Below, one piece after another: positions 2,574 to 51,647 of a DNA stretch of 64,000 nucleotides. Numbering within the stretch: position 1 is the stretch's first letter; the number at the start of each line of letters is the position of its first letter. Origin of the DNA: Nemertoderma westbladi (taxonomy: Eukaryota > Animalia > Xenacoelomorpha); the NCBI GenBank assembly GCA_032718475.1, contig JAUCBJ010007129.1, forward strand, positions 12,028 through 76,027, in the 5' to 3' direction. Below the pieces are notes generated by a model that saw only the letters and a program-made list of their open reading frames with translations, searched no databases and was not told the DNA's origin. A program made the translations under genes and the position numbers.

Positions 2574-5500
2574 TTAGAGTTGGACATTGCACAACAAGCG
2601 GCAGCGGCCGAGTTAGCGCAACGAACAGCAGCGGCCGAGTTAGAGCGACAAGCGGCAGCGGCCGAGTTAGAGCGGCAGCGGCAGCGGCCGAGTCAGCGGC
2701 AGCGGCAGCGGCAGCGTCCGAGTTGGAGCGACAGAGGTTAGCTTCAGAAGCGAGAACCGAAATGAAAAAACGGCAAATAAAGGCTCAATCAGCTATACGA
2801 CAAGCGGAGTTCGAGGCGCAACAACAACAAACGGAACAACGCGAGAAAGAAGTTAAACTTCGTTTCGAACTCGAGAAGAAGGCGAGAGAATTAGCCAACG
2901 CCAAGGAAGACCTGGATCTACAAGCCCGCGATCGATCGATGAGATCTCGAGACGGACATGACTTGGACCAGATAGAGGTAAGACATCGCCAAATTCAGGA
3001 ACGGAAGAAGGAAGGAAGCGTGGGAGCACCCGGACGGGAACGACAATTAGTAAAGGACTTGTGTCAACGATTCCCACAGGTAACTCATATGTTTGCACCG
3101 GTTACGACTAAGGAACCTGTTTCGATTGCGGGTAGTAGCGATATTTCTCCTATCCATGGTGCGACGGAACACAGGTTTGTTATTCCGGGCGAGTTTACAC
3201 CGCCAAGAGCAACGTCGTCGCCTATTCCGAAAGTCAAGGTAAGTAACCCACCGATTACGGATCGTAGTAGTTTATTGACCGGACCTGCGCTACTGACGAC
3301 AAAACAGGTGAGTCCACCGTCGACACCTAAACCCGTTACACACTACGCTTACCCAATGACGTTTCGACCAACAAGGCCTTTGGATTCAAATGCTGTCATT
3401 CGCCCACCGTTCAACCAATTTACATCGCAATCTACGACTTCGAGGAAGACTTGTGAGCCTACCGAACAACGAAAGCGAGACGATGTTCCGAAACGAACCG
3501 TTAGAATTAGTACGACGCAACGGACGCGAGCACGTCGACCACCATATCCAGATGATAGTAGTACTTCGAGCGAATCGGATTACCCGAAACGCGAGGTATT
3601 TAGAACGGGGGCGGCCGATGAATATAAACGCGAGCGTTCAGACAACTCTTTTGCAGATAATCCTCCACAGAATACACCAACACAGAAGGCGTTACAACCA
3701 ACGGACGCAATTAGTACACAACAGTTCGCCGACATTCTGCGACCAGTTGTCAATAAGTTGGCTCAGATCGAGGAGCGTCTGGAGGAAGTTCAAACCGACA
3801 GTTCGAGAAATTCCGAATTCGAACACAATAGACACCCGAAGGAACCACAAAGACCGGTACCTTCAAACCCCATATCGTATCAGGGAAAAGCGCCAAGAAG
3901 GGATATCAACCAGTGTACCAACCAAGGACGCGAAACTCTGAACGTTGCTGAGGAGATAGCAAAATTCGCAGCCAGACAGGGATTGCCGGTACAACAACCA
4001 CCGAAGTTTTCCGGTAGCTCAAAACACTGGCATACCTTCGTAGACTATATCGAATCCCAGATCGCCGTGTGCGCCTTTACATCACGGGAGAAGTTCAATT
4101 ACTTGCTCCAAACGTTGTCAGGAGAACCTAAACGTTTGGCGGAGACTTTCGTCGGTGTACCGGACGCTTTCGAACTAGCGTACGATCGTTTAACTTCGAT
4201 ATACGGAGGTACAGTGAGCATGGCCAGGTCAGTAATAGAGGAACTCTGTAAGGGAGGGGCTATCACTAAACCCGTCGACTTACTAAAACTAGCTGACGAA
4301 ATCAAGAACGCTATCACTACCTTAAGATCAATTGGACAACTTGATTACGGGAATACCCCTACAGTCCTATTAAAGATAATAGGACGACTCCACCATCGAC
4401 TTCGTCGGGAGTGGAGGAAGGTCGAATACCAGCGAGAGGAGCGGGGAGGATTCTTAAAATTAGAAGATGTGTACCTTTTAATATCCAGGGAGGCGGTAGT
4501 AGAAACTCGATCTAACTATACCGACCAGCACATCGTGGCAGAAGGGATCACACTGCCATCCTCCAACCGACAAAAACCCCAGACAACATCCACTAAGACG
4601 GCCACTTACGCAACACCGACGGAATCACGACAATTCTCAGACGGTAATAGAGTATCTGCGCCCATTGGGACGAAACAGACGAGACAGCAACTCAGCATCG
4701 ACTTCAACGGCTGCCAATACTGCGAGCATCTAGGTAAGCGGTATATCGGTCACAAGTTACGAGGTTGTCGACAATTTCGCGAGTTGAACTCGGAAGAACG
4801 ACGGCTGCAAATACGGCCACTGGACTCTTGTTGGCGATGTACACGACACGGACACGTGCGTAAGGATTGCCCAAATACTGACACTTGTCCATCCTGTGGA
4901 CGCAACCACGACGGTCTGCTCCACACAGACAGCCACACGCCGACGAAACGCTTCGCCAGGGAACACCCGGAAGCAGCAGCGAGATGTGATGCGGCCTACC
5001 GAAAACGAGAATCGAAAACGACTCCGACCTTCGTGACACATATTGAGGATTGCTTCTCAGAACAATCCGGATCGTCGGACGAAGAATCAGAAGACGACGA
5101 CGAATATCCCAATGGAGACGAACAACCGTCGATCGCGCTCCTGACTACTGATCAACTGAAGGGATTCAGTGTAATCCCGATTAAAGTTACTGGCACAAAG
5201 GGGAGCAAGAGGATCTACGCGATTCTAGATTCAGCCTCATCTCATAGCTACGTGGATGAAAAGATAGCTGACGTCGTGACGGATCTCAGACAAGGTAAAC
5301 ACGTCAGTTATACAGTAAGTAGTATGCACGGACAGCGTGCAATACCAGTGACACGAGTTAAGTTGGACTTAGACTCTCTTCTTCCAAAATCGCAGCATAG
5401 CGAGAGGGAGAGGTCTTTGTTGCCCTTTAGAGATCTAACCTTTGCGGCCACGAAGGACTTTAGTAACCTACTAGGTCCAGTGCCGGAACAATCTCTGGAG

Positions 5501-7930
5501 GACCGTAAGTATTTCAGACACCTTGGTGTACCCGAATGTCCTGTCAATTATAGATCGGTAGCAATGCTGATCGGGACGGACCAATTCAACCTACATCAGG
5601 TGTGGGAAACCAGACCATCGGCAGTTGTAGCAGGAAACGCATACGCCTGCAGAACGCCGATAGGGTGGTATACACGAGCGCCTGTGCGCACACTAGACGT
5701 AAGTGACGAGGAAGACGATGTACAGAGTACATGCAGTTTATTAACTACAAACTCAATTCATTCCTTTTCACACGACGTGAACCATACTACACTACAGTCG
5801 ACAAAACATCACAGACGTGTAACTAGTATGATAAGTCACAAGGAGCAGCTAACCCACAAGGTGAGTTTAGAACTTGGGGAGAAGACGAATCAGCTAGAGA
5901 TTCCATCGACGACAGATGATAGGCTTGCGAGTCTACCTACCCCAATAACCTCAACAGTGCCCGTCGATATCGATGATGACGCGTTGAAAATTCATCAGTT
6001 GGAACAAGCCGCCTTGGACAAAGAATTAACGGAGAAGACTATCAGGTGGTTAGAACAAGATACAGCTGAACCTGGTAGCTACGAACCTTGTATGTCGGAA
6101 CAGGAGAAACAATCCCTAAAGATCATGGAGGATACTATCCGACAGACGGAGGACGGACATTACGAGGTGGGGATGTTATGGCGTAGCCAAAGTCCTAAAC
6201 TTATAAATAACTACCCACTGGCTTTAAGACGTCTACACTCAATACGACAACGTCTATTAAAGGACGAGAAAGCCCATCTGCAGTACAACACTCAGATGGA
6301 GACGTATTTGACTGAAGGATACGCTATCCGAATGACTAACCCGGAGCGAGTGACCGACCAGACATACTACCTGCCACATCACTATGTGAGACACCCCGAC
6401 AAACCAGATAAAGTACGCGTAGTCAATGATTGTGCGGCTCTATTTGAGGGAATGTCCCTCAATAGTGAGTTGATGGATGGACCGAACATGAATAATTATC
6501 TTATGGGGGTGATTATGCGCTTCCGTCAGCGCCAAGTAGCCTTTACTTGCGACGTTGAAGCGATGTTTCACCAAGTAAAAGCGTTAGAGCGAGACAGAGA
6601 CAGTTTGCGGTTTCTCTGGTATCCGGAAGGGGACTTAAGTCTACCACCAGCGACTTACCAAATGCAAGTTCGCGTTTTCGGTGCCAGAGACAGCCCAAAT
6701 TGTACGATGTACGCCTTGAAGCAAGCCGCTAGAGATCAGAAACATCTGTATGACCCAGAGATAATTAGAATTGTAGAACGTGACTTTTACGTTGATGACG
6801 GATTACAGAGTTGCGACACAGTAGAACGTGCTACAACAGTAGCACATCAATTACGGGACTGCTTGGCGGGCGGAGGTTTTAACCTCACCAAATTCGCCTC
6901 AAACAGTGCCGAATTAGTTGACTCATTCGGAACTACTGAGCGTGGAGGTGGTGACATAGACCTAGAGTTCGAACCACTACCGACGACTAAGGTGTTGGGG
7001 CTCTTTTGGGACCCAAACACAGACAACTTTCGAGTGAAGGTGAGACTGGACAGTCAAGGAAACACACTGACCAAGAGATCATGCTTGTCAAAATTGAGCC
7101 GATTGTTCGATCCGTTAGGATTCATCAGTCCAGTGATACTGCAAGCCCGCATTTATATGCGCAGTATATGGAAGGATGGACTAACATGGGACGAGCCGAT
7201 CTCATCAGACCAAGTGGACTTATGGAAAACCTGGGAGGCGGAATTATCTTCACTAGAGGATTATTTCATACCCAGGGTTTACTTTCCATTACAGAGTACA
7301 TTTCCTGACAACTTGGAACTACACTGTTTTTCTGACGCCAGTGACAACGGTTTTGGTGTGGCAGCGTATTTGCGCAGACAAGTAGAATCGGACGAGTTCG
7401 ATGTTTCGCTCATTACTTCTAAGGCTAAGACCATGCCTACTAAGTATATGACGACACCACGAGCCGAGCTACAAGCCGCGACCCTGTCAACCACCATCGT
7501 GAACCTCATACAGACAGAACTACAGTCGAGTTTACAGATATTTTATTGGACTGACGCGACGTTAGTTTTATTTTACATAAACAACGACACACTCGAATTC
7601 AAGACATTCGTAGCTAACCGTCGCGCGGAAATTCTAGACCGTTCAATAAAAGAGGATTGGCGACATTGTCCCGGACCACAAAACCCAGCTGATATTGCGT
7701 CGCGAGGAATGATGCCTGAGGAATTCTGTAAACCGGAGAACAAAGAGTTTTGGCAACACGGACCCCAGTTCTTGCAGAAATCGACACAAGATTGGCCTCC
7801 GTTGTACGACAACAAGTCCAACACCATTCCTAAGGACGCCGAAATCAAGAAACCAAAAAAGGGGAAGACAAAGAAAAAGACGACGGCGGCAAAACTCAAG
7901 AAAAACCGAAGGCGAAATGGAAAGATATAA
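995..7930 (+). CDS. BEL/Pao Gag-Pol (Gag, aspartic protease, RT, RNase H); portion before 2574 is a chimeric product of duplication and insertion
   Basis: Gag PPKFSG..W..F; knuckles CQYC..H..C, CWRCTRHGHVRKDC, CPSCGRNH; protease ILDSAS; RT YLPHH, KVRVVNDC, DVEAMFHQ, FYVDD; RNase H LHCFSDAS, PRAELQAA, WTDA, NPADIASRG. Confidence 0.93.
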   Translation: MTLCYTLSWLNVQSGHSKLTVAAHLATRSTSCAGVIGGPKTEPGKHQATLRPGLIITSVGLAPGVVERCSPHGCASESSERSPEGHKRALLTTDQLKGFSVIPIKITGTKGSKRIYAILDSASSHSYVDEKIADVVTDLRQGKHVSYTVSSMHGQRAIPVTRVKLDLDSLLPKSQHSERERSLLPFRDLTFAATKDFSNLLGPVPEQSLEDRKYFRHLGVPECPVNYRSVAMLIGTDQFNLHQVWETRPSAVVAGNAYACRTPIGWYTRAPVRTLDVSDEEDDVQSTCSLLTTNSIHSFSHDVNHTTLQSTKHHRRVTSMISHKEQLTHKVSLGLGGKTSQLEIPSTTDDRLASLPTPITSTVPVDIDDDALKIHQLEQAALDKELTEKTIRWLEQDTAEPGSYEPCMSEQEKQSLKIMEDTIRQTEDGHYEVGMLWRSQSPKLINNYPLALRRLHSIRQRLLKDEKAHLQYNTQMETYLTEGYAIRMTNPERVTDQTYYLPHHYVRHPDKPDKVRVVNDCAALFEVRVGHCTTSGSGRVSATNSSGRVRATSGSGRVRAAAAAAESAAAAAAASELERQRLASEARTEMKKRQIKAQSAIRQAEFEAQQQQTEQREKEVKLRFELEKKARELANAKEDLDLQARDRSMRSRDGHDLDQIEVRHRQIQERKKEGSVGAPGRERQLVKDLCQRFPQVTHMFAPVTTKEPVSIAGSSDISPIHGATEHRFVIPGEFTPPRATSSPIPKVKVSNPPITDRSSLLTGPALLTTKQVSPPSTPKPVTHYAYPMTFRPTRPLDSNAVIRPPFNQFTSQSTTSRKTCEPTEQRKRDDVPKRTVRISTTQRTRARRPPYPDDSSTSSESDYPKREVFRTGAADEYKRERSDNSFADNPPQNTPTQKALQPTDAISTQQFADILRPVVNKLAQIEERLEEVQTDSSRNSEFEHNRHPKEPQRPVPSNPISYQGKAPRRDINQCTNQGRETLNVAEEIAKFAARQGLPVQQPPKFSGSSKHWHTFVDYIESQIAVCAFTSREKFNYLLQTLSGEPKRLAETFVGVPDAFELAYDRLTSIYGGTVSMARSVIEELCKGGAITKPVDLLKLADEIKNAITTLRSIGQLDYGNTPTVLLKIIGRLHHRLRREWRKVEYQREERGGFLKLEDVYLLISREAVVETRSNYTDQHIVAEGITLPSSNRQKPQTTSTKTATYATPTESRQFSDGNRVSAPIGTKQTRQQLSIDFNGCQYCEHLGKRYIGHKLRGCRQFRELNSEERRLQIRPLDSCWRCTRHGHVRKDCPNTDTCPSCGRNHDGLLHTDSHTPTKRFAREHPEAAARCDAAYRKRESKTTPTFVTHIEDCFSEQSGSSDEESEDDDEYPNGDEQPSIALLTTDQLKGFSVIPIKVTGTKGSKRIYAILDSASSHSYVDEKIADVVTDLRQGKHVSYTVSSMHGQRAIPVTRVKLDLDSLLPKSQHSERERSLLPFRDLTFAATKDFSNLLGPVPEQSLEDRKYFRHLGVPECPVNYRSVAMLIGTDQFNLHQVWETRPSAVVAGNAYACRTPIGWYTRAPVRTLDVSDEEDDVQSTCSLLTTNSIHSFSHDVNHTTLQSTKHHRRVTSMISHKEQLTHKVSLELGEKTNQLEIPSTTDDRLASLPTPITSTVPVDIDDDALKIHQLEQAALDKELTEKTIRWLEQDTAEPGSYEPCMSEQEKQSLKIMEDTIRQTEDGHYEVGMLWRSQSPKLINNYPLALRRLHSIRQRLLKDEKAHLQYNTQMETYLTEGYAIRMTNPERVTDQTYYLPHHYVRHPDKPDKVRVVNDCAALFEGMSLNSELMDGPNMNNYLMGVIMRFRQRQVAFTCDVEAMFHQVKALERDRDSLRFLWYPEGDLSLPPATYQMQVRVFGARDSPNCTMYALKQAARDQKHLYDPEIIRIVERDFYVDDGLQSCDTVERATTVAHQLRDCLAGGGFNLTKFASNSAELVDSFGTTERGGGDIDLEFEPLPTTKVLGLFWDPNTDNFRVKVRLDSQGNTLTKRSCLSKLSRLFDPLGFISPVILQARIYMRSIWKDGLTWDEPISSDQVDLWKTWEAELSSLEDYFIPRVYFPLQSTFPDNLELHCFSDASDNGFGVAAYLRRQVESDEFDVSLITSKAKTMPTKYMTTPRAELQAATLSTTIVNLIQTELQSSLQIFYWTDATLVLFYINNDTLEFKTFVANRRAEILDRSIKEDWRHCPGPQNPADIASRGMMPEEFCKPENKEFWQHGPQFLQKSTQDWPPLYDNKSNTIPKDAEIKKPKKGKTKKKTTAAKLKKNRRRNGKI

Positions 7931-9603
7931 CTTCAAAGGTCAAGAGAGGAAGACTTGCGAGCCTTTCTACACCAGACATATCGCCAGACGGTCAACCAGA
8001 CACGTTACCAGACGGTCAACCAGACACGTTACCAGACGGTCAACCAGACATTCTACCAGACGCTAGTAACGTACTGACAAACAGTAAAGCCGCAGTTTCC
8101 CTATTGGAGCGGCATTCTATTGACAAACAACCAGATACGTTACCAGACGTATCGCCAGACACATTACTAGACAGTCGACTAGACATTTTGTCAGAAACAT
8201 CACAAAATGTTCTACCGGACATTAGTAATGTACCGACTAACAATAAAGCCGCAGTTTCCCTATTGGAGCGGCCTTGTATTGACAAACTACCAATTTTGAC
8301 ACACTTGAGCGACCATAAGCACGGTGAAACCTCATGTATTACAGATGTGGGTAGTACCTACGCTAATGTAAATACAGGTGTTACTTTGCGCTCAAGAGAC
8401 ATACCGAACTTGCAACCTATGATGAGACCTGGGATTAATGTCGGCAGGAAAATAAGTTTACCGAAACCTGCTGACCCCATAGAGTTCAAACCACCATTAA
8501 CGATCGACTTACAAAGTACCGACAATCAAGGTAAGAGGACAAAAGGGGACAAATTACTTGTAGACCCGGACGGATCAACAGTCAACAAGGGAATACTTAC
8601 CGGCGGACCCGTGGGCCCTTCTAGTAATTCAAAACCTTCCAAGTTCTCCATTGACTTACCTGATGACGTCACAAATACTTACGTCGACCGTATCGTAAAC
8701 TTAACAGATTCTTGGTCAAACGCTTGCCGAAAATTAGCGTGGATTGTACGTTTTGTACAATACGTTAAAGGCAAACGCGACTTTACACGTCGACTTACAT
8801 TGGCTGAGATTGACAGGTGTGAAATTAAATTAATTCGCCATTACCAACTGCGATATTTCGCGCGCGAATTCACATCTATAAATCAAGGTCAACCAATCAA
8901 GTCGTCACCGATACTGAGTTGGAGTCCGATTATTTATAATGGCTTGATTTGTCATAAATCTCGGCTTCAAAACATTGACTTTAACACAAACTTTAGATAC
9001 CCAATAATAATACCGCAACATCACGAACTACAACGTGCAATGATACTGGACGCACATTTACATCTGAAACACGCTGGAAGACACCACTGTCTTTCCTACT
9101 TACGTACTAGATTTGTATTAATTAGACCCAGTAAAGCATTAAGTTCAGTGACACGTACGTGTATTATTTGTAAAAAGGTACATTCTAGAATAGGTACCCA
9201 AGAAATGAGTGAACTACCACAAGCACGACTTCAAGCATTCAGACCACCTTTTACAGAGACTGGAATTGATTGCTTTGGTCCCATACATACGAAACGTGGA
9301 CGTATACTAGTAAAACGCTGGGGACTGATTTTCACATGTATGTCCAGTAGGGCAGTTCACATTGAACGTGTGATGGATCTTTCCACCAACGCGTTTATAC
9401 TAGCACTGCGGCGATTTATCGCTAGACGCGGACTAGTAAAATGCTTGTACTCAGACCAAGGGACAAACTTTGTTGGTGCTCGGAATGAGATTGCTAGAGC
9501 CTTTAAGAAATTAGATCATGATCAAATCTCGAACGAACTACAACCTCACAAGATTGTTTGGAAGTTTAATCCTCCAGATAGTCCTTGGAGAGTCCGGCTT
9601 TAA
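7834..9603 (+). pseudogene. Linker plus integrase (HHCC zinc finger, D,D core) in the -1 frame relative to pol; internal deletion near 9590
   Basis: Frame is open from 7834 through ORF 8104-9603. Motifs H..H..CIIC, GIDCFGP, RAVHIE, YSDQGTNF, FNPPDSPW. The expected GG.WER segment with the catalytic E is missing and the sequence resumes at LTPAHL. Confidence 0.9.
7972..8290 (+). repeat. Coding tandem repeats (24-bp PDGQPDTL units and a ~160-bp duplication) in the RH-IN linker
   Basis: ccagacggtcaaccagacacgtta is repeated; taaagccgcagtttccctattggagcggc occurs near 8085 and 8244. Confidence 0.85.
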
Positions 9604-9746
9604 CACCGGCACACCTGCTTATGCAGGCACCGACGACATGAACGCCGATTTCTATTCCAATAGAAAGCGACAGTTACGGTAGAAAAGCGTGGAAAATCAC
9701 GCAACTACTGGCTAACAAATTCTGGGAAATATGGCAAAACCATTAT

Positions 9747-10025
9747 TTGCCCTCTATTTCTGCCAGAACAAACTGGTACAATAACACCCGCGCATTAAAG
9801 CCGGGAGATCACGTGCTGTTGGCAGAAGTGAATCTAAAAAGACGCTTCTGGATAACAGGTGTCATTTTAGCCACACATCCATCTATGGATGGAGTGACAA
9901 GAACTGTGACGGTACGAACAATTGACGGTCGTACAGTAGACAGACCGACTCAACGTCTCGTACTTCTTGAAGAGACTCGTAACGAGTCTGGAGACTACAA
10001 ATCTCCACCTAATACTAGTAAATAA
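9747..10025 (+). CDS. BEL integrase C-terminal tail (DUF5641-like) fragment
   Basis: YLP....RTNW...LKPGDHVLL......W..G.I....PS.DG..R.V.V.....RP...L..L pattern. Confidence 0.85.
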   Translation: MPSISARTNWYNNTRALKPGDHVLLAEVNLKRRFWITGVILATHPSMDGVTRTVTVRTIDGRTVDRPTQRLVLLEETRNESGDYKSPPNTSK

Positions 10026-10684
10026 TTAGGAGTTTACAAATAGATTTCCACGTACCTGTACACCGTAGTAAGGACAGCGGTAGAATTCCATTGTCTTTAT
10101 ATGTGAACATTGAGGGTAGTACCCTTATGTGTCACATAGGAGCGGGATTTGTAGGTATAAGAAATGGAATTCTACTTGGAACTCACAATATTGAGACATT
10201 TTCGAAATTTTAGACAATCCATTTGGATTTGAAAAATTTTTAAAATTTTCTCCAGTGAATAGATTTCAGGGTACAGTCGGGTGGAACTTAAAATTAGAGA
10301 AACAAGAGAGGAAGACTTGCGAGCCTTTCTTAAAATTTTAATTAAATTTTACACGGTCTTGTTTCAATAAGTTACGACAAAATAGACTCCCCTATATTTA
10401 TTACTAATTCTTGACTGCTTATTTTCTGATAATAGTTTGGGATCAAAAAGTGAGTATTTTAGACTCACGGCCAGTTTAGCCCAAATTCGTTTTTATTTCG
10501 GCAAAAAATTTTAGATAAGAAGCAGCGTGTCATTAAAGAAACCCTAGATCTTAGGCTATGGGTAGGAGGTTAGAGCGTTGTCGAGCCCAAAGGGCAGACG
10601 AAACTCTCACGTCTCCTCACAACTAACTACAAACTCTGTTGTATTCCCTCTAGTAGTAATGATTATGTAACTACACCTCTAATT

Positions 10685-13600
10685 ATGGAGAAAGGGACAC
10701 AAGGAGAGCCGAGATGGGGATATGATATCCAAGAGGAGGCAGCAGCGCCATTCGAAAGATTTGGAGCCAAGGATTATACTATATTTGGTATAAAAGAATT
10801 ATCGGAAAGTACAGCGAAACTCGCGAGAACTAAATATGACTCGAATGTATTAAAGAGAAGGCAAAACGCATTAAACGAAAGAATCGAAAGTTTGCGCCAA
10901 ACCTTCAACGAACTTTACCCGTACGATGCTTTGTGTGATACGGGAGACATTAGCGAAGACCCCGATACTGAAATTAGTCGTTTGTATCATACCATGCAAT
11001 ACCTAAAGGCGCACGAACCTATGCCCGCGGTACGCGATGAATTCGATGGAATGCATCTTTACAGACGAACTCGAGGGGACGATAGAGAAACCAAGGAAGC
11101 ATTTTCAGTTTATAAACTTTATTATCAATGCGGTTCTTGTATGCGCGAACAACGAAATGCGATTCCGATGCGTTTGAATAAGGAAAATCCCGAACCGATA
11201 TTGGCGAGGTGTTCGAATCATCAACAACTACGCTACCAGGAAGGAGGGTATCCTTTATCGAATCCATATCATTCATTTGCTATGACCGGACCAAAGGCGG
11301 GAGAAACTGTCATTTACCCACCTAAGGTTGTTGAACCCGATGTATTTGAACTTACGCTGGACGAGGCGAATCAGTCAACCCGCGAAAAGAAAGAAGCTCT
11401 TAGCCTATACAGGGCCTACAAGGCTTTCGAGAAAGGTGAGATGGAAGAATGGGGTGGAAGACTCGCGAGCCTACCTTGCCATTGGACGTCACACGATCAA
11501 ACTTCAGCTAAGGAGATGACACCGGAAGTTTTCGAGAGCATAAACTTTGCTCAAAACGTTATTCAGAGACTACAGATTGCATCCCCGGAGAGGCCAAGAG
11601 AAATGCAACCGTATAGTACTTCAGCTACGAAACCATTGAGTACGACACTCAATTTCCCTATTAGTATACCAGTCCGACAGGATACGACGTACGAAATACC
11701 CATCGTGGATCATCCAGAAATCATTTCAAACTTGGAGTTTCTTCCTGCAGTTGTTTTCAGCGATATGAGTAAGATATATGATTTACGTAGACATATTACT
11801 CAAAAGGTCGTGAACAACGTTCCACCTCATATCCAAGATTTTAAGGAACTGGATAGAGCTGGTGCCGACATAGCTCCGAGTAATCTGAAAGGATACCTAA
11901 CCAAGACGATTCGTTTATGGATTGGAATCGGAACCTTCGAGTCGGATACAGATATTGCCGCAGATTGGCGAGGTAAGGTTATTCGTTTCGATGAGGATAA
12001 GGATATAGAGAAGATTTGGCAACCTTCGGAAGAATTGTTGGATGAATGGACTAGGACGTTTAGATCGTTTCAGGAAAACGGTTATATGTTTTACGATAAC
12101 GAGGGCGGCAGTCATCAGCAGAGTTTGACTTCTAAGACTATACAGATTAGAGCGGCGGACGGAGTCCTGCACGTTTTCAGTAGACAGAGGAGCGACAAAC
12201 GAATGCCGATACCTCCAGCGAATACAAAGCGACACCATCTTATCACCGATATAGTAAAGAAGATGGACCAAGCTTGTAATATTGACGCTAGAATGCTACC
12301 AAAGATGGTAAGAAACATGATTTTAGATAAAACTGTTGTAAAGGTTGGATCAGGAGTAAGGGAGGATTTAATTAGCGACTTCGCCGGCATGACGGACAGC
12401 GATGACCGACTACCGACACCATACGTCGACACTCGACCTCTTATTCTGTGGTCTATAGAACAGGGATATTTTCGTGAGTATAATACTCAGAAGACTGGAA
12501 CTGGATACATTTCCTACCTGTTATTCAATTGGGATTATAAGGAAGGTAAAAGAAACAAGTATATTGAAACTTATGGAGAAGGTGATACTCCAGATATGAG
12601 TGAGTTTGAATCACAGCTTAAATGGAGAGGATGCGTGTATTGGGCTATTACGTCACCTCCAAGAGCGGTCTTACAATATTATTTAGCAATAGAGTCGTCA
12701 GTGAATGTTTGCCTAATCGCCGACATTGTGTCTCGGACTCTCAAAGGACATCCACTTTGTCTCGGAGAAGATCATACGTTCTACATGGAAGGGAGAATTC
12801 GTACCGACGTGTTTAGACGATTCCTTGAACCCTTCTACAACTCCGACGCTCAGTGTAATGCCTTTACTCGAGCAGGATTTAGTATATTTCGAGACGTGTA
12901 TCTTCGCTGTGCGGGATCTCTTATCGAAAGACCATCTATGTTTACATTGTTACCCTATGAAGGAGAACGTATCGTGGAAATTACGGATGAATCACGGCAG
13001 ACGCGCGCGCCTATCGGTCACCTTGGTGATGAATTCGAAGTAACTACTACGATCGCCGACGATCCTTTAGAGGAACTTCTTGAGATTGAAAGGAACCTCA
13101 GGCTGCCCCACGACAGCGGATTCCGAGTGGTGCGCGAGTATCTGTTACAGATTCACCCAGATAACAAAAACACGTGGAATTTTCAGAAAGTCGTTAATCG
13201 GATTACGTATGGTGAATTCGATCGTTTCCGAACTGAAAAGCGGAACAAGGGAGCTTGGTTAACCGTCGCATGGGCGTACCGAGCCGCGTTTTACCACAAA
13301 CGTATACGAGCGAGCGTATTCGAGGAAGAGGAGGTCCTAGAGGCGACGAATATATCAGCCACTCCGGTTGCGCCGTCTGCACGTCACCCTCGGGAGGACG
13401 GACAGGGTAGGATCATACGGGTCCAGAAGGTGGGCCAACAATTGAAGAAAATTATTAATGTAGAAGAACGCAAGGGAGTTGAGCCGACTATTCGAGTTAC
13501 TCGGGATACGGTATCACTTCCAAGAGAACCGGTAGGAGGATCGGGACATACACCAGCTGATCAACAGGGGGCGCAAGCTACTCTTGGGTCTGCGTCGTCC

Positions 13601-13831
13601 GCCTTTCGCGAGTTCCCAGACGTTCTACCAACTGTAGCGACAACTGATCGGTCACGAGGAATTGGTCGAGGTTTTGGGATGCCAAATAGACGAATTTGCG
13701 AGGAAATAGTCGCACCGTCCCTCAACGTCCCAAGTAAACCAGTGACTCGCCCCATTAGTCCCATATCGCGAGCAAAGTCACCTGTGCGCAGTTTTCGAGG
13801 ACGCGGCAGGGCTCGATCTACTAAGCGATAA
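10685..13831 (+). CDS. ORF2: 1048-aa accessory protein with N-terminal CxxC..CxxH module, DEDDy-like 3'-5' exonuclease domain (~12070-12720) and RG/basic tail
   Basis: Intact ATG-TAA ORF. ExoI YDNEG (12092-12106); IQI..ADG..HVF; LP......D..VVKVGSGVRED (ExoII); YVDT; ExoIII-like YLAIE. Collinear homology with the family B ORF2. Confidence 0.85.
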   Translation: MEKGTQGEPRWGYDIQEEAAAPFERFGAKDYTIFGIKELSESTAKLARTKYDSNVLKRRQNALNERIESLRQTFNELYPYDALCDTGDISEDPDTEISRLYHTMQYLKAHEPMPAVRDEFDGMHLYRRTRGDDRETKEAFSVYKLYYQCGSCMREQRNAIPMRLNKENPEPILARCSNHQQLRYQEGGYPLSNPYHSFAMTGPKAGETVIYPPKVVEPDVFELTLDEANQSTREKKEALSLYRAYKAFEKGEMEEWGGRLASLPCHWTSHDQTSAKEMTPEVFESINFAQNVIQRLQIASPERPREMQPYSTSATKPLSTTLNFPISIPVRQDTTYEIPIVDHPEIISNLEFLPAVVFSDMSKIYDLRRHITQKVVNNVPPHIQDFKELDRAGADIAPSNLKGYLTKTIRLWIGIGTFESDTDIAADWRGKVIRFDEDKDIEKIWQPSEELLDEWTRTFRSFQENGYMFYDNEGGSHQQSLTSKTIQIRAADGVLHVFSRQRSDKRMPIPPANTKRHHLITDIVKKMDQACNIDARMLPKMVRNMILDKTVVKVGSGVREDLISDFAGMTDSDDRLPTPYVDTRPLILWSIEQGYFREYNTQKTGTGYISYLLFNWDYKEGKRNKYIETYGEGDTPDMSEFESQLKWRGCVYWAITSPPRAVLQYYLAIESSVNVCLIADIVSRTLKGHPLCLGEDHTFYMEGRIRTDVFRRFLEPFYNSDAQCNAFTRAGFSIFRDVYLRCAGSLIERPSMFTLLPYEGERIVEITDESRQTRAPIGHLGDEFEVTTTIADDPLEELLEIERNLRLPHDSGFRVVREYLLQIHPDNKNTWNFQKVVNRITYGEFDRFRTEKRNKGAWLTVAWAYRAAFYHKRIRASVFEEEEVLEATNISATPVAPSARHPREDGQGRIIRVQKVGQQLKKIINVEERKGVEPTIRVTRDTVSLPREPVGGSGHTPADQQGAQATLGSASSAFREFPDVLPTVATTDRSRGIGRGFGMPNRRICEEIVAPSLNVPSKPVTRPISPISRAKSPVRSFRGRGRARSTKR

Positions 13832-14700: not shown

Positions 14701-14720
14701 ATCCTGTTTTCATGGAGCGG

Positions 14721-15339
14721 TATAGAATTATATTCCCTAAATGCCGTGGATTTTCAAAATTTTATTTTATTCGAATTAACTTTGTAAAGATTGCTTTGAG
14801 TTCTCATTAGTATTGGTTCTATCTATTGTGTATCTATCGGTCAAGTGGTTCAGTAGCTCAGTTGGTAGAGCGTTGGAAATTATATGTGTAGTAGGTATCG
14901 AGTTCGAATCCTAGTAAGTGCGAATTATTTTTTGTGCAGAATTTCAACTCATTTAAATTAACCGCTACAAATTAATTGCATTTGTCTGTACCAATAAGGC
15001 TGTAGTTATTTGATTGTAACCAATGTCGTGCAAGTTATATATTAGCTGGACCAATAAGCTATCTTTAAAACCTTGTTAGAACCCATAGAACAATCGAGAA
15101 TTTTCTCGATTGATTGCAGCACAAATTTAGTATATAAAGGTGCGATTCGTTCATTAGTTATCACTCACACTACCTTATACTTCAATCTTATATCTCAATC
15201 TTTCTCAGATTATCTTATCAATATTCTGTCGTGCTTAGTTTATTCTCAGATTACATTGTATTATAATTGTGTCTTCTGTAATAAAGTCAGAATATTCTCT
15301 CAGCTTTTCTGTTTTACTATGAATTCACTACGGTGAACA
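14721..15339 (+). repeat. Putative 3' LTR of element A
   Basis: Follows GGAGCGG (14714-14720, same motif as the family B PPT). TATATAAA ~15132, AATAAA ~15280, ends GGTGAACA. Starts TA rather than TG, and no second copy is in the window. Confidence 0.65.
14847..14922 (+). pseudogene. tRNA-like / Pol III A-box-B-box cassette inside the LTR of A
   Basis: TAGCTCAGTTGGTAGAGC (A box, intact D arm) at 14854-14871, GAGTTCGAATCC (B box) at 14900-14911, T-run at 14928-14933. Anticodon, T and acceptor stems pair poorly. Confidence 0.7.
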
Positions 15340-18085: not shown

Positions 18086-19359
18086 TGTTCGCGCTTTTAG
18101 ACCTTTAGCAGTTTAACCTGCCAATTTTAATTGTCTTTTTTGTATATCAATTATTTAATGTACTGAAGTTACATCAGCCGAAGCCAGCCTGTGCGCGACC
18201 ATTCACCCACAGTTAAGGGAGACTGGATTCGGATGCTTTGATAGTGATTGCAGTGTAGACCTACTGTATTATTCGATTGATCGTTAATATATAATCTCTG
18301 ACAATATATTTACTTTCGGGGAAATATTAACAGTTCCTTTAGGACGTGGCGCTTTAAGTATAAAACAGAGTTATGACTTATACTAATCACAACTGGATGG
18401 CTACTGAGTTTCGTAAAAAGCGCATTCTTTAGGAGATGCTTTATTAACCTTCACACTACTTCACACGACTTCACACTAGTTCACACTACTGCGCACTGAT
18501 CTGCCGACCGTCACTGAATTTGATCATATATAAGGAGGATAGCAACTGACACATGTAGGGATTATGAAATAACATTTAATTCACACAAAAACCACTATAA
18601 TGTAAGTCGCAGTTGCTACCGGTAAACCTGTTCCTCTAACCTTTAGTAATCAAGAAGATTGGGGGTTTTATGATTATTCATCGGTATTCTCCAAATATAT
18701 CAGCAATATACACCAACATAACACCAATTAATAACAGAATCAAATAATGCGGTGAACAGTCAGTATGTGTTACTTATGCAGTGTTCCATGTGCAGCAATG
18801 CATGAATTGCGGTGTGATGCGGTAGTTGAATCGCGTTGCGCTTCAGTGATTCAGATATGAAGTATGATTCAGTTAATAGTTTTACGTTCTTGAAATCAAA
18901 GCCATCTGATGTTTCTGATGTTTAGGTCAAAGTCTGAAACTTCCAACACAGAAGTACAGAAGAATTTCCAAGCAGTTCTCTCGCTCAGAAAGGTAAACAA
19001 AGACCATAATGCATTGCGCGGTTTTACGTAGGCCTCTGTACAAGATAAAATGAAAATCGCTCTGATTGGCTGAGCTGAGCGAGCTGAACAAAGAGATGTT
19101 CCACGTTTACAGTAAATCAGCTGACAGATTTCGTCATCTGAGTTCCAGTCTTTTAGAGTATTAAGCGCATTGCGGTAAAAATGGCTTGTTATGTCCGCTA
19201 AAGCACCTATACTGCGCATTGTGGGGAAAATGGCTTGTTATGTCCGCTAAAACACCTTCACGGTACATTGCGGAGAAAATGGCTTGTTATGTCCGCTAAA
19301 ACACCTACACAGGATATTGTGGCGAAAAATGACCTGTTATATCCGCAAAAGCTTTTACA
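18086..19359 (-). repeat. 3' LTR of B1
   Basis: TGTAAAAGC...GCGCGAACA on the minus strand; AATAAA (minus) at 18440-18445; ~47-bp tandem repeats at the U3 end. Confidence 0.96.
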
Positions 19360-19442
19360 CCGCTCCCAGAAAATGGGATTTAATTCTATAAAATATAATA
19401 AGTCACAGTCACAAGTCTAAAATATAAAAATACTCTAAACAG

Positions 19443-20993
19443 TTAGTCCTTCTTACGCGAACGGCGTTTACGCAGTTTTTTGAGGCTAGCAAGAGTCCTT
19501 TTCTCTTTGGGGCGAGCCACTTTACTAGGAGGGCACAACTCCTGGGTGAAGGGTGCAATACAATTGCATCGGAAGGTTTAGGATTACGGTCGGTGTAGAC
19601 GCTGGTCGAGGTACTCGGTTGATCAGTATTAACCTCAGTGGAACGAGGTCGAACAACCTTCAGAGCGTGTTTCAAGACAGCAGCTCTTACTGGTCCCTGA
19701 TGATTCGTCTGCACGAGAGCGGTAGGTGGACCGTGTGTAGTGAGAAATTTCCTCGGTTTGATGGTTCTTTCCGACTCGCGTTCTTGGGCTCTGTCGAAAT
19801 TGATATGCTTCTCTTCGAGCTGATTTTCCTCCGCTTGTCATTGGAAGCATTCGTCCAAAACTCTTTCAGAGAGTAGGGTCGTCCAAGTTCGATATCTTCT
19901 TAGAGATTCTGGATTTCCCGATCGAACTGGGGTAAACCTAATTCTTTTACCGCTTGGACTTGCCGCTGCAATTTACGTTTATCTAAACAATCGTAAGTTC
20001 CTTTTCCAATCTTTTGTCGAATAGCGTCTAGCGCGTTTCATACAACGCTCTCCTCCACCTTGGTGACAGGTTGTATCGGGGTTAGACCGGGACGATTATA
20101 CGGGTTGAACGGCGATATTAGGTGTCCGCGTCCCAATCCGGCTAGGTAAGATGGGCGAATATCTAGGGAGCCCACAACCGGAGTGCCACCGACTAATTGT
20201 TCGGGTAATACTAGATCTTTGAACAATGAGTGCAGTTCAGGAGGATCCGTCATACTATTAGGATCAAGAGTCTGACATCTCACCAGGGAATGGGGATGCA
20301 TGACCGAGTTTTCCGGAACTCTGATCATCGGTTTATTTAAGGATCGTTTGAGTTGAGCGAGCGTAGGTGATACGTCGAACAAGTTTCGCTCGAAACTCCA
20401 GTAAATATAGCGAGTAAAACTGTGTTTAGCGCAACGTCTCCGCAGATGTTTATGTCTTTCCGTGTGTTGGTTGGGTCTAGGGCATTCATCGTAATAATAC
20501 CAAAGTCGCACGTCTTGTAGGGGAAACACGGGTGATCTTTCTCCAGTTTTACTGTCTCTCTTAAGAATTCCAAATATACGTTGAAGTCACTGCGTTTATC
20601 CGGTTCTTTAACGTCTTCTCTTTCGAGTTGGTTTCGAATAGAATTTTCGTGTTCGATTCTCAGTTTGTCGTTCCGACTCCGCTGGGTATGATATTAAAAT
20701 AGGATCATTTCCCTTTCGGTGTCTACATCGTCCATATCGTGTAAATCGATAGGATGGCCAGTAGTTAAGAAGTCCATATATGTACCATTACGATGCGTAT
20801 AGCGAGCGATGAATTTTCTATAGTCTAATTCACGCGTGAGCTGTTCCTTTGACATTGGCGGTTCGATATAACGGCCATCGTCTTCCGTAGTGGGTGGACT
20901 AGCTTCGCCACGTATTAAACTATCAACAAACGCTTGCAATGGTAGGGTATATCGCTCCCTGATACCAAGATCATCTTCTATCAACTCAGTCAT
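19443..20993 (-). pseudogene. ORF2 of B1, internally deleted
   Basis: Homologous to B2 39778-35482. A junction near 19790-19800 removes ~2.6 kb (B2 ~35833-38418), and there is a smaller deletion near 20555. Confidence 0.9.
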
Positions 20994-22721
20994 AGCTGCT
21001 ATATGAGTTAATCGATATTATAATTAATTATAATTAGGCTAGCGGTCATCGCTGCCTACCCCTCAATGCCCCCGGACAGCGCAAGCTCCTCAGCGATAAT
21101 GTACTGTTGCCGCTGTGTCTTTCGCCAACGTAGTAGCTACACAACGATAACAATAACCAGCGCGAGTCACTCCACTGTCCGTCCCAAGGGCTCAGAATTA
21201 CTTCAGGTTCTTGCTACAGAAGTAGGGCTACTTTCACAACTGCGACTCGCTACTGCAAACACACTTTAGTAGTAACATTCACCTATAAACGCACAAATTC
21301 CACACAACTGTCACAAATTGTACACATTCGGGCCATTTGTCAGTTAGTCAAGTGCCTTCCAGAATGCCACGTTATTATTATGTATCCCTGGATACTAGCA
21401 GTGTGCTATTTATTCCGTATGCTATTCAATGGGGCAAGCTTTTTATTGTTCTTTTAACTCACTTCTAATTCTAGCGTGGTTGTTGCCATGGTGACATTAT
21501 GGAAAGCTAGCAGTAGAATTAGGGTAATTCTCATGCATACAGATCTGGGATGCTATTTAATAGTAATTCTTTAATTGTCAATATTCCCCTTTATACATGA
21601 TTTTATGAATTTTATCGGCCATTGACTATATATTGGAGATTCTCTCACGCTAATATACTTAATAGGGTGAATCTCCGCTCCCATGATCTATTAATTGATG
21701 GAATTTTGGGAATGTTATAAATTGTATAAAATGACAATTTATCAAATTCATGAGAGGATGTGAATTTAAATTTATTCCCATAAAATTTTATTATTTAATA
21801 TTAAAATAGACAATTTTATTCCAGAACATGTCTGGGGACTGAGATCCTTGATTCTAGGAAATTTGTCCTTTTAAGAGTATCGGTAAGTGCTACGATATCT
21901 TAATCGACTAGAATTTTTAAAGGATCTTTTTTTTAACAGATTTTGATTTATAGATTTTCTTGGTTTACAAACTCCTTAGAGTTTATTTGTATGCATTTAC
22001 TCTATTATAACATTTGTTTTAATAGATTTTTATAAATATTAACTATTTAATATTTAAGATGGGCACCGATTTATTCCAGAACATGTCTGGGGACGTTAAC
22101 CACTGATTCTAGAATTTTGTCTTTCAAGTATATCGGTGGGTGCCGCGATATCTTAATCGACTAGAATTACAGATGGTCAAAGGGTTTAACAGATTTATTT
22201 TGCGTTTTACGCTACTGTTAAAGGGACATCACGCTACTATATGTATTATTTAATATACGGTATGAGAGCAATATTGCAAGAAGCAAAGTCAGTGAGAAGA
22301 GGCAAGTCGTATCCAAGGTCTACCCAGAGCTTGGTTTAGCCGAGACATGAGGATCTGAACTTTGCCTTCCTAATACTCTACTTACCAATAATACTTGAGT
22401 ATAGTAGGAGCTTTATTGTACTTTAATAAGTACGGACATTTCATCTTACTGTAGTCATGTATTTATAATATGATATGGACAGTAAGGAAAGAGAAAAAGA
22501 ATTATTTCTCGCCGTTGCACTAAATATATAATATAGGTAATTAAGTAATAAACACGAATATATATTGCACTAATCTACTAAACAATCGCTAAAATAACAT
22601 CCTACTAAATAAAATTAAAGAAAACGATTATAATAATAAAATTACGTAATAATACATACATAAATATAAAAATAATAAAAATATATAAAATAATGTAGTC
22701 ACACACCCACTCCAGACGCTG

Positions 22722-25700: not shown

Positions 25701-27080
25701 TTCTACATCTGCTGGAACGAGATCTATTTCCTCCGCCTTCAGGATCTGTTGTATCGCCTTCATCAGATGATGTAAATCCCTGTCTCTTGGGAGTAGATCG
25801 ACTTATTATCTGCATCTGACTAGCTGTTATCTGGTTATTTAAGTAGTCTTGCTTCTCTTGAAGATTTTCCAACTCTAGTTGGGTTGTCTCTTCAGATGCC
25901 CTCCGTTCTGCTTTTGCCACTGCCTCTGCCGCCTTTCTTTCAACTTCTGCAGCTGCCGCTGTCGCTTTTCTTTCCGCTTCTACCGCCGCCGCTGCCGCTT
26001 TTCTTTCCGCTTCTACCGCCGCCGCTGCCTCTTTTCTTTCAGCTTCTGCCGCTGCCGATGCCGCTGCCTTTCTGTCTTCTATCTGCTTTTTCTTTAGTTG
26101 CACTTCTTGGACCCTAGCGATGCGGATTCTTTCATCAAATTTAGCTCACTCCGTGGCTAACATTTCCGCATCTAACGAGTCTAACACAAATTTGGCTCCC
26201 TCACTATTAGGGTGAAATCCAGCTAGCCGTCTCCTTAACTCTTTGTCACCTATAAATCGTTGATAGTCCGACAGATAGATGTCAATAGCGTCTTTCTTCT
26301 GAGGTTTCTCTGATGTCGCTTCGCTTTCCACCTGAGAAAAGGTAGCATCTGTTGACTCTCCGTGGGTCGCGCGCTCAGTTAGGGGGTTGTTGAAACAGTT
26401 GTTCCTCTAATCGCTCCAAAGAGCTGAAGAATCCCTGTACATATCCTGCTGCCGACCTCTTCCACACAGCTGGATCTCTAGTGTCCTTTACCACTCCCAT
26501 CCTGTATAAGTCCTCCCAGGCAACTTCCGATAAGTTAAATGGGAGTCCGGGTCCGGGGAAGTTCCATTGCGTCTCGACAATAGACCTTAATTCCTCCATC
26601 GTATATCCCACATAACTGTCCTTGGTCGATCGCTTACTTCTCGCCCAATCGATTTGATGTTCTTCCACCGCAATCAATACTCTAGTGAGTACAGCTCCCA
26701 GAAGAATTAGAAGTGGATCTGGATAAACCGCTTCTGCCATCTTTGCTCCGATCTCGGGTGTCAACTCTACAGTGTCTGAACTACTGGAGTTATCGGGCCG
26801 TTGAGAAATAAGTTCCCGGTTCGGGTGCTGCTGCTGCTGCCTCTTGGTCCCGCTTGACTTGAGCCCTAGTGCCTATGATAGACCAATGGTGCTCTACTAG
26901 CCTAGGGTCTGACACTACTACTGTAGGGATGACCTTTCTTACAGTAGGAGGGGACTTGGACTTTGGTCTCAGACGTTCTATACTCTTAGCTGAGTCCCAG
27001 ATCTTTTTAAGACCCTGTCTAACACTCATTCTAACACTTTCTAAGAGACTATCTGACAGTGTTTGTTTTGTGTCAGACAT
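22722..27080 (-). pseudogene. Gag-protease of B1, fragmented and fused to the last codons of integrase
   Basis: ORFs 26790-27080, 26375-26764, 25345-26103, 24627-25418, 23027-24568. Knuckles CVLCDGPH, CYNCLRRGH, CAKCGAKHH; protease LLDSGS; tail RLCLLERD. Confidence 0.92.
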
Positions 27081-27235
27081 GTTTGATTGTACAGTTGAAT
27101 GCCTACTACTATAACGACAGTTAAAGCAAGTCTAGTAATTCAGTATCAACTGCAAGCCTAGTAATTAATTACCGATACTGTTACTCAGTGTAACGTGATA
27201 TATATACAGATATATAATATGTTAGAATACCGGTA

Positions 27236-27603
27236 TACACTTATAGTATATATAAGAATTATTACAGACTAGAATTAGTCACAGAATACCGGTATATAAT
27301 TTCAGCATAAATTTATATAAATATATATAATAAGCCTACCGTAAATACCAGTATACAGCATACACTTATAGTATATATAAGAATTATTACAGACTAGAAT
27401 TAGTCACAGAATACCGGTATATAATTTCAGCATAAATTTATATAAATATATATAATAAGCCTACCGTAAATACCGGTATACAGCATACACTTATAGTATA
27501 TATAAGTATTTATACAGACTAGGATTAGTCACAGAATACCGGTATATAATTTCAGCATAAATTTATAGAAATAAATATAATAAGCCTATCGTAAATACCG
27601 GTA
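27236..27603. repeat. 125-bp tandem repeat x3 in the 5' leader of B1
   Basis: tacacttatagtatatataag starts at 27236, 27361 and 27486; B2 has a single copy (~49779). Confidence 0.9.
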
Positions 27604-51642: not shown

Positions 51643-51647
51643 GCATG

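Follow-up and report, generated by a model that had tools for sequence, protein, structure and literature searches.

The window analysed here, 64,000 nucleotides of Nemertoderma westbladi DNA, raises the question of what a long third gene does behind the pol gene of a BEL/Pao retrotransposon, a group described as having at most an env-like third gene. A first-pass annotation had read this gene as a large DEDDy 3'-5' exonuclease, and the sections below examine the element, the predicted domain, the priming of the element and the possible functions of the protein.

The elements and their third gene

The copy with the intact third gene (ORF3), here called family A, comprises the following features.

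2574..10018, plus strand: BEL/Pao gag-pol of family A, with a rearranged 5' end and pol broken into three frames around 7830-7930 and 9600
10623..10656, plus strand: candidate splice acceptor upstream of the ORF3 start, suggested by a branch-like motif, a pyrimidine tract and a tandem AG
10685..13831, plus strand: ORF3 of family A (P0001), a single uninterrupted frame of 1048 aa
11129..11221, plus strand: putative zinc-binding motif CxxC...CxxH (C149, C152, C176, H179), kept in family B (N-terminal match of A to B, E 3e-12)
13067..13324, plus strand: predicted helical domain 3' of the nuclease, its helices taken from a low-confidence model, with a short family B match (E 7e-4, 20 aa)
13325..13828, plus strand: Pro/Ser/Gly- and Arg/Lys-rich tail with a terminal basic cluster; the family B ORF3 likewise ends basic
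14707..14720, plus strand: polypurine tract-like motif, identical at 12 of 14 nt to the motif preceding the B2 3' LTR
14721..15339, plus strand: putative 3' LTR, with a TATA box, AATAAA and the last five bases of the B LTR, and with no partner LTR in the window

ORF3 is intact, as the first-pass annotation had stated: when the region was shuffled 200 times, no stop-free frame exceeded 169 aa. The integrase C-terminal frame ends 667 nt before the ORF3 start, which confirms its placing behind a BEL/Pao integrase; its placing before a 3' LTR is less firm, since no family A 5' LTR lies in the window and the 3' LTR assigned to this copy is recognised only by its likeness to the family B ends. Two further candidates in this region were rejected, namely a self-complementary primer site after the putative LTR (56 of 100 shuffles were as good) and a tRNA-like stretch within it, called by neither ARAGORN nor Rfam.

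ORF3 has none of the features of an envelope or fusion glycoprotein, i.e., membrane anchor, furin site or hydrophobic N-terminus. The hydropathy scan agreed with the earlier reading that no signal peptide or transmembrane segment is visible: no transmembrane stretch was found (the top 19-residue window, at aa 661, scored 1.38), and no N-terminal window was among the eight most hydrophobic. A furin-type site (R-x-K/R-R) was not found in ORF3 of family A, which contains 2 N-glycosylation sequons.

A second family with a homologous gene had also been claimed, and it is indeed present on the minus strand, where the homologue runs from 39778 to 35482.

34229..54921, minus strand: element B2, a full BEL/Pao copy of 20,693 bp including a 2.4-kb insertion, with 1175-bp LTRs (97.9% identical) and a 5-bp target-site duplication
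35482..39778, minus strand: ORF3 of B2, ~4.3 kb, broken by stops, frameshifts and an inverted duplication (37502-37588), and ending 79 nt before the 3' LTR
18086..30405, minus strand: element B1, a copy whose internal deletion removes RT and the nuclease segment of ORF3, with LTRs 97.2% identical and a 5-bp target-site duplication

Both B1 and B2 have paired TG...CA LTRs, a target-site duplication and a polypurine tract; B2 without its insertion is ~18.3 kb long, and its ORF3 has extra zinc knuckles (PF13917, E 5e-4). The linkage of ORF3 to a BEL pol inside LTRs, proposed in the first-pass annotation, is thus directly visible in B2, whereas in copy A it depends on the putative 3' LTR.

A and B are members of BEL/Pao (Belpaoviridae), as judged from their Pao-type RT/RNase H, DUF1759 gag and protease-RT-RNase H-integrase order. 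Domain matches include the Pao peptidase A17 (PF05380, E 8e-42), DUF1759 (PF03564) and the integrase zinc finger (PF17921) in family A, and PF05380 (E 8e-35) and PF18701 in family B. There are 2431 Pao-type relatives (top identity 44%), and among the best 60 database relatives the RT-RNase H regions of A and B are sisters (FastTree support 1.0). In the ORF3 core, 131 of 393 aligned residues are identical between A and B (33%).

A predicted DEDD-type nuclease domain

12017..12784, plus strand: predicted 3'-5' exonuclease domain of DEDD type (aa 445-700), suggested by Atlas neighbours, hhalign, NCBIfam and A/B conservation
12095..12103, plus strand: ExoI, D471-x-E473, identical in family B and aligned to ExoI in extended hhalign alignments
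12341..12430, plus strand: ExoII region, K553...D561 together with D582, the segment carrying the hhalign profile match
12572..12586, plus strand: ExoIII candidate 1, Y630-x3-D634, at the canonical distance from ExoII; B keeps the D, not the Y spacing
12680..12694, plus strand: ExoIII candidate 2, Y666-x3-E670, the choice of the first-pass annotation, gapless between A and B

It is likely, on the sequence comparisons that follow, that aa 445-700 adopt a DEDD fold in which metal would be bound by D471, E473, D561 and one of the two residues D634 and E670. In the ESM Atlas, a language-model resource, 24 of 30 matches over two windows, all from this one source, were PF01612-bearing clusters (0.91-0.92), with feature counts of 159-167, slightly below the 170 typical of true members, and with scores of 0.9 occurring by chance in 4-10 of 100; the closest clusters are WRN-like exonucleases. 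An hhalign comparison of the A+B pair with 52 bacterial PF01612 domains scored 35.8 (P 6.5e-5), against a mean of 13.4 (sd 2.6, maximum 23.4) in 162 column shuffles and 10.9 for the reversed control; the hhalign probability is 64%, and the confident portion consists of 46 columns at ExoII. The sole NCBIfam match to the domain, DnaQ (PRK06309, E 0.026), covers ExoI. Scores of single-sequence HMMs are marginal (family A, 1.8 bits, equalled by 3 of 1000 shuffles; family B, missed by one of three profiles). No subfamily was assigned, in that a profile of 11 EXD2-like bacterial domains scored 23.8, below the mixed set of 52.

That the motifs resemble those of DEDD nucleases by chance, and that the domain has some other fold, is in our opinion very improbable. 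Such a reading would draw on the lack of a significant match at library level: no Pfam model matched ORF3, the PF01612 cut-off was not reached, and PDB sequences and PHROGs gave no nuclease match. It would draw equally on the two competing ExoIII candidates and on the low-confidence AlphaFold2 models, with pLDDT of 31.5 for the whole protein and 32.0 for the domain with a two-row alignment. Against it, Atlas, hhalign and NCBIfam agree on the superfamily from different parts of the domain, and that superfamily had been predicted beforehand. The earlier assignment to an RNase D/WRN-like DEDDy domain is accordingly backed by three weak, concordant computational lines and by conservation in two families, and structural modelling did not confirm it: Foldseek returned no match with a model (pLDDT ~32) too poor to be meaningful.

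The motifs YDNEG (aa 470), KVGSGVRED (aa 553), YVDT (aa 580) and YLAIE (aa 666) do follow the order of ExoI, II and III, as previously described. Their spacing, said to be canonical, is not: D471 and D561 are 90 aa apart and D561 and Y666 105 aa, compared with 57-69 between ExoI and ExoII (45 of the 52 bacterial PF01612 domains, those with readable motifs) and 65-73 between D and Y. Nor was the proposed replacement of the ExoIII Asp by Glu in both families established, because Y630/D634, which keeps the Asp, fits as well or better; it tops the 397 windows in A, with Y666/E670 scoring lower and neither being significant. The ExoI D-x-E typical of PF01612 is present in both families (D471/E473), and D561 supplies the ExoII Asp in a K-x-x-x...D context, within the match that exceeded every shuffle. 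All candidate ligands of A are identical in family B; it should be noted that 13 of 34 acidic residues of the domain are identical in B, so that the retention of these five is unremarkable when taken alone.

Primer-binding sites

29169..29181, minus strand: B1 primer-binding position, 13 nt abutting the 5' LTR that pair without mismatch with LTR positions 417-429 (29977-29989)
53736..53746, minus strand: B2 primer-binding position, 11 nt abutting the 5' LTR, fully complementary to 54503-54513 within that LTR

The B elements have no TGG-type tRNA primer site; instead, the site pairs with their own LTR, an observation that is new here. No TGG occurs within 80 nt 3' of either B 5' LTR, and an 18-nt site for tRNA-Arg or tRNA-Gly is lacking there. 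At the primer position, own-LTR pairing is complete in B1 (13/13), B2 (11/11), element C (10/10) and fragment D (11/11), and was equalled in 0, 17, 5 and 2 of 5000 Markov controls, respectively. All four LTR-leader junctions in the window have such sites (10-13 nt), compared with 5-6 nt in the four flanks after 3' LTRs, and in family B the pairing of site and LTR is preserved via two compensatory changes. In element C the pairing LTR segment begins past the predicted initiator, ~25-40 nt further downstream, and is predicted to form the loop of a hairpin. A by-eye likeness between the leader of fragment D and the upstream small ORF of B was not recovered by tblastn and was dropped.

The window does not include the primer site of family A, whose ORF3 is intact. 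BEL elements lacking ORF3 have a TGG-type primer site in 0 of 14 cases, so that non-tRNA priming does not require ORF3.

Selection and distribution

The 5' part of ORF3 is under purifying selection. Between B1 and B2, dN/dS is 0.19 in one 5' segment of ORF3 (98 codons, p 1e-4) and 0.15 in another (243 codons, p 3e-14), similar to the 0.22 of gag-protease; the nuclease part falls outside this comparison since B1 lacks it. The 3' tail of ORF3 has a dN/dS of 1.07.

The general wording of the first-pass annotation, that BEL/Pao retrotransposons carry this gene, applies to the single A/B lineage and not to the group at large, for 0 of 80 other BEL loci had an ORF3 homologue. Word-seeded protein searches (aa 60-880, and the domain alone at E up to 10) gave no homologue, a HMMER search with aa 346-772 over 1.84 billion representatives gave 0 matches, and viral, metagenome and prokaryote contigs gave none. 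Against phages and plasmids, tblastn found nothing beyond one chance ABC-permease match, and the rows of a PDB sequence search (HIV RT and MAD2 at E 0.3-1.1, a repeat protein at 0.004) were all taken as chance. Since the collections searched are poor in animal repeat proteins, these blanks do not set the range of ORF3. In the openly accessible literature, no report of a BEL/Pao exonuclease ORF was found, the rotifer work being the only relevant one; the word "exonuclease" does not occur in the main text of two BEL/Pao surveys, one of which limited elements to 15 kb in part of its pipeline.

Comparison with known systems

The precedent cited in the first-pass annotation, DEDDy ORFs in bdelloid rotifer retroelements, is real. 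These ORF3s occur in Juno and Vesta LTR (gypsy) retrotransposons and in Athena/Terminon elements (PMC5408684, PMC6431247), the latter Penelope-like, and not in BEL/Pao, the host group here. Common to both is an ORF of its own behind pol, where env would lie, with no membrane segment and with a predicted RNase D-like DEDDy domain. Unlike the rotifer proteins, those of A and B, at 1048 to ~1430 aa, include putative zinc-binding, predicted helical and basic modules. The rotifer motif is DEED, and the ExoII residue of the A and B ORF3 is Asp, as far as a comparison by description goes.

Belpaoviridae (Semotivirus) are characterised by a genome of 4.2-10 kb, an 18-nt primer site complementary to tRNA-Arg/Gly and at most an env-like third ORF (ICTV profile, PMC8742986). 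Families A and B share with them the set and order of gag-pol domains, LTRs, a polypurine tract and a third gene after pol, but differ in that this gene is not env-like, the genome is ~18 kb and the tRNA-Arg/Gly site is missing.

With host DEDDy proteins (RNase D, WRN-like, EXD2, Nibbler/MUT-7, EXD1, Egalitarian; PF01612), ORF3 shares the ExoI D-x-E, the ExoII K-x-G...D and the following DT motif; in contrast to them, it lies below library detection, has ~30 extra residues between ExoI and ExoII and has an uncertain ExoIII. Egalitarian, a protein of 1004 aa, consists of a long N-terminal region, an EXO domain, a linker helix, a small helical domain and an unstructured tail, and the overall layout of the family A ORF3 is similar, although this is a comparison of layout only.

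Self-priming is known in the Tf1/sushi group (Tf1, Tj1), where Tf1 uses the first 11 nt of its RNA, cut by the RT RNase H (PMC7175516, PMC4600332). Here, too, the primer position lies directly next to the 5' LTR, and 10-13 nt of it are complementary to a stretch within the LTR of the same element. The position of that segment in element C, past the RNA start as predicted, differs from that in Tf1.

Possible functions of ORF3

We favour, at a probability of roughly 0.4, the reading that ORF3 is a lineage-specific accessory gene of a BEL/Pao clade, kept under selection in the env position, and that its product is a metal-dependent 3'-5' exonuclease of DEDD type, which would remove unpaired 3' ends from the RNA of the element itself. 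The protein would be translated from an env-style spliced message, its zinc-binding and basic modules may deliver the nuclease to element RNA, and the nuclease would nibble single-stranded tails back to duplex, as RNase D does on tRNA. It may act in trans, because copies that lost it exist. 3'-end processing of element RNA has been proposed for the rotifer ORFs (Rodriguez et al.). One candidate substrate is the primer, in that elements with no tRNA site would have to obtain a 3' end from RNA of their own. The more specific version, in which LTR RNA anneals beside the 5' LTR and its unpaired 3' tail is degraded by the DEDDy exonuclease as far as the duplex, giving a 3' end for reverse transcription, seems to us improbable; if true, a captured RNase D would mature a self-primer much as RNase D matures tRNA.

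Other activities of the same fold have to be weighed against RNA trimming. An unlikely, though credible, role is that of a counter-silencing factor, which would shorten piRNA/siRNA precursors too far, destroy them, or serve as a decoy of Nibbler/MUT-7/EXD1-type host proteins. Host DEDDy proteins do work in piRNA maturation (Nibbler trimming; EXD1), a separate gene is able to act in trans, the basic C-terminal clusters could be nuclear signals, and the family is represented by numerous diverged contigs across three DNA runs; against the idea, rotifer families bearing DEDDy genes are still covered by piRNAs and have no clear copy-number advantage. Rather unlikely, in our view, is an Egalitarian/EXD1-like adaptor, in which the nuclease fold and the following helices would grip an RNA stem-loop of the element for transport or particle assembly, with catalysis incidental. 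Egalitarian binds the I-factor retrotransposon signal and keeps all five catalytic residues yet does not need them, so that kept residues are no proof that catalysis is the job of ORF3. The parallel layout and the distortion of canonical motif spacing by large insertions agree with an adaptor; against it, likeness of layout is not homology, the ORF3 sequence did not match the Egalitarian chain when compared with the PDB, and the sole QT motif in its C-terminal third (aa 768-774), which we take not to be a typical dynein-light-chain site, has no positional partner in B.

A DNA-directed 3'-5' exonuclease, proofreading or trimming the cDNA ends of an unusually long (16-18 kb) genome, is a doubtful prospect. 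WRN-like clusters, nearest in the Atlas, represent a DNA-active branch of exonucleases, and B2, at ~18 kb, exceeds the range given for Belpaoviridae. The Tf1 self primer is reportedly not removed, and an unremoved primer of this type could leave 3' extensions. Against this, ORF3 and RT are not fused, and ORF3 with its spacers accounts for much of the extra length.

Implications

Two sister families of unusually long BEL/Pao elements carry a large conserved ORF3 in the env position that likely encodes a DEDDy nuclease with nucleic-acid-binding parts, so that the rotifer arrangement would extend to a further group. If the third gene of these elements is of enzyme type, DEDD nucleases have been taken up by a third retroelement group, pointing to a recurring advantage. 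The intact 1048-aa copy provides a testable protein for the question posed in 2017, namely whether a nuclease of a retroelement processes the RNA of that element, counteracts small-RNA silencing or does no more than bind RNA, and the co-varying self-complementary primer site provides a defined candidate substrate.

ORF3 and its element

ORF3, the gene that follows the integrase in family A, is a real, selected, multi-domain accessory gene of one giant BEL/Pao lineage. It is a single open frame of 1048 aa (longest frame in 200 shuffled controls, 169 aa), which starts 667 nt past the end of the integrase C-terminus, 3′ of BEL/Pao gag-pol remnants (PF05380, PF03564, PF17921). ORF3 is intact in this copy, and pol is broken into three frames. 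Sampled ORF3 words are present at 67–79% in four DNA runs (three studies, one organism); because one contig of one such run spans 10744–12630 without a gap and with 8 differences, the gene is not an assembly artefact. The 64-kb window holds no 5′ LTR of family A. The 3′ LTR was placed by a purine tract identical to that of family B at 12 of 14 positions, by five terminal bases shared with family B, and by the presence of AATAAA and a TATA box. Within this inferred LTR, a tRNA-like stretch at 14846–14920 (+) has A-box and B-box motifs; neither ARAGORN nor Rfam calls it.

Elements and ORF3 genes in the window
10685–13831, plus: ORF3 of family A
14721–15339: inferred 3′ LTR of family A
54921–34229, minus: B2, a family B copy flanked by a 5-bp target-site duplication, its TG...CA LTRs 1175 bp long (97.9% identity)
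39778–35482, minus: broken ORF3 homologue of B2; the 3′ LTR begins 79 nt beyond its end
30405–18086, minus: B1, an internally deleted family B copy
17912–60996, plus: element C, BEL-like, with gag and protease remnants
17912–18085 plus 30411–30784, and 60426–60996, plus: LTRs of element C, the first in two pieces
within 33–2573, plus: fragment D (purine tract, LTR at 61–782, primer site, leader)

The ORF3 of B2, translated with X at its breaks, shares 131 identical residues with that of family A among 393 aligned (aa 343–768). Further matches cover the CxxC...CxxH-bearing N-terminal part (E 3e-12) and a small portion of the helical domain; family B has additional zinc knuckles. The RT-RNase H regions are 44–46% identical, and a tree with the best 60 of 120 relatives groups A and B with support 1.0, to which attraction may contribute, both branches being long and the relatives picked with A. 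The simplest reading is one old capture followed by descent.

Between B1 and B2, dN/dS is 0.22 in gag-protease, 0.46 at the gag N-terminus and 0.30 in integrase (52 codons). The comparison of copies proposed in the first-pass annotation shows purifying selection on two 5′ segments of ORF3 (0.19 and 0.15) but not on its 3′ tail (1.07). Deletions removing the nuclease part occur in both families, in B1 at 19792–19802 and in public contigs with joints at 10824–12857 (runs X1 and X3) and 10844–12969 (X2). A small ORF lies 5′ of the B gag (26375–26872 and 48936–49454, minus; about 120 aa from the first Met). It is 80% identical between B1 and B2, has no Pfam match, and could represent either the N-terminus of gag or a gene of its own. 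Tandem-repeat arrays lie at 50843–52200, inserted in the B2 leader, and at 63187–63834.

Both B copies inserted into element C, as did two inverted-repeat elements (32292–33339, 58543–59580); neither pol nor ORF3 was found in C. Fragment D is nested in a second piece of family A protease-RT: 1–32 and 1258–2573 match 5102–6449 of family A at 98.9%, and this rearrangement also created the 2328-aa frame at 944.

Distribution

No ORF3 homologue was found in the protein, viral, metagenome, prokaryote, phage and plasmid collections searched, and none of 80 metagenomic BEL loci matched (best E 0.13), although 66 reach the integrase end. A terminal repeat pair is present in 36, and in 33 of these the repeat begins at most 920 nt from the integrase, leaving no space for such a gene. 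ORF3 is thus a trait of the A/B lineage; the initial attribution to BEL/Pao retrotransposons holds for this lineage and fails for the group at large. The best RT relatives are 39–44% identical, the named ones mainly from marine invertebrates. Three loci carry ORFs of 256–297 aa 3′ of integrase (L126:9371–10261, L093:8000–8767, L132:10858–11625), without Pfam matches and unrelated to ORF3 by tblastn.

Nature of the domain

Scans of Pfam, PDB sequences and PHROG gave no significant match to ORF3, and single-sequence HMM scores for its domain are marginal. Three weak, concordant lines nevertheless predict a DEDD-type exonuclease fold, which we consider highly probable; another fold is very improbable. 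In the ESM Atlas, 24 of 30 matches are PF01612-bearing, WRN-like clusters scoring 0.91–0.92 (PF01612 is in 11–38% of their members, and such scores arise by chance in 4–10%). With hhalign, the A+B pair matches 52 bacterial PF01612 domains over 46 columns at ExoII (score 35.8, P 6.5e-5, probability 64%; 162 column shuffles, 13.4 ± 2.6, maximum 23.4); on extension, the alignment brings D471-N-E473 into register with ExoI. Among NCBIfam models only DnaQ matches, and it does so over ExoI (E 0.026).

The four motifs first read by eye are positioned as described, with an ExoI–ExoII spacing about 30 residues longer than usual. The reported absence of a transmembrane segment also stands, and there is no furin site. 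The proposed ExoIII Asp-to-Glu change, and with it an altered active site, is unproven. Of two ExoIII candidates, neither of which reaches significance, Y630-x3-D634 keeps the Asp, and its distance from D561, 69 residues, falls in the bacterial range (65–73); hhalign selects it, and among 397 windows in A it has the top rank. Family B retains the Asp, with the Tyr two residues nearer. The other candidate, Y666-x3-E670, is gapless in A and B and has a Pro where one is usual, but its score is lower and it requires 35 more inserted residues. A complete catalytic tetrad is therefore at least as likely as an altered site.

Primer sites

Primer sites at LTR-leader junctions
29169–29181, minus: B1, first 13 nt after the LTR, all complementary to a segment of both B1 LTRs (Markov controls reaching this, 0/5000)
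53736–53746, minus: B2, first 11 nt, complementary to the corresponding segment of the B2 5′ LTR (17/5000); 9 nt pair with its 3′ LTR
30785–30794, plus: C, 10 nt paired with its own LTR (5/5000)
784–794, plus: D, 11 nt paired with its own LTR (2/5000)

None of these four junctions has a tRNA-type primer site, and B1 and B2 lack TGG in the 80 nt that follow the 5′ LTR; the window holds no family A primer site. Two compensatory changes between B1 and B2 are matched on both sides, cross-pairing reaches only 6 nt either way, and for the flanks after 3′ LTRs (n = 4) the pairing covers only 5–6 nt. Just past the paired segment, similarity between the LTRs of B1 and B2 drops abruptly; in C, the paired segment of the 5′ LTR occupies the loop of a hairpin predicted to have 6 bp. 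Tf1 and Tj1, in the sections consulted, have the same signature (PMC7175516, PMC4600332).

Proposed role and alternatives

We favor, at a probability of roughly 40%, a trans-acting 3′–5′ nuclease trimming unpaired 3′ ends of element RNA. Translation of ORF3 would use a message spliced in the manner of env, with the acceptor-like motifs found ahead of both start codons; its zinc-binding and basic modules would carry it to element RNA, and it would trim 3′ ends left unpaired. Action in trans fits the copies that lost the nuclease part, B1 and those with the public-contig joints. A counter-silencing role is less likely, and an Egalitarian-like RNA adaptor slightly less likely still. In the descriptions consulted, Egalitarian has a layout resembling that of ORF3 and keeps all five catalytic residues, yet these are dispensable. 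RNase D acts on tRNA and the WRN exonuclease on DNA; trimming or proofreading of cDNA by ORF3 is improbable.

It is equally doubtful that ORF3 matures the primer of this tRNA-independent BEL/Pao lineage. No TGG site occurs in the 14 ORF3-less metagenomic loci whose LTR end is defined (they comprise 10 distinct sites; 36 less 20 whose repeat ran to the contig end and 2 with no ACA end), namely L093, L098, L110, L132, L133, L146, L151, L153, L154, L159 and duplicates. Non-tRNA priming is thus independent of ORF3, which makes a link less likely. Contiguous self-complementarity in the LTRs of these loci, themselves partly assembled, is at most 9 nt.

Relation to published elements

BEL/Pao elements are described as 4.2–10 kb long, with a tRNA-Arg/Gly primer site and only env-like third genes (PMC8742986). 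Literature searches found no exonuclease ORF for them, and the consulted portions of published surveys mention none. Rotifer Juno, Vesta and Athena elements carry DEDDy ORF3s with a DEED motif, their activity untested according to the sections consulted (Rodriguez et al. 2017, PMC5408684), an account that two reviews repeat. DEDDy ORF3s in retroelements are therefore already known; in the present gene, likely a DEDDy nuclease judging by its sequence, the novelty lies in the host group, the size and the architecture.
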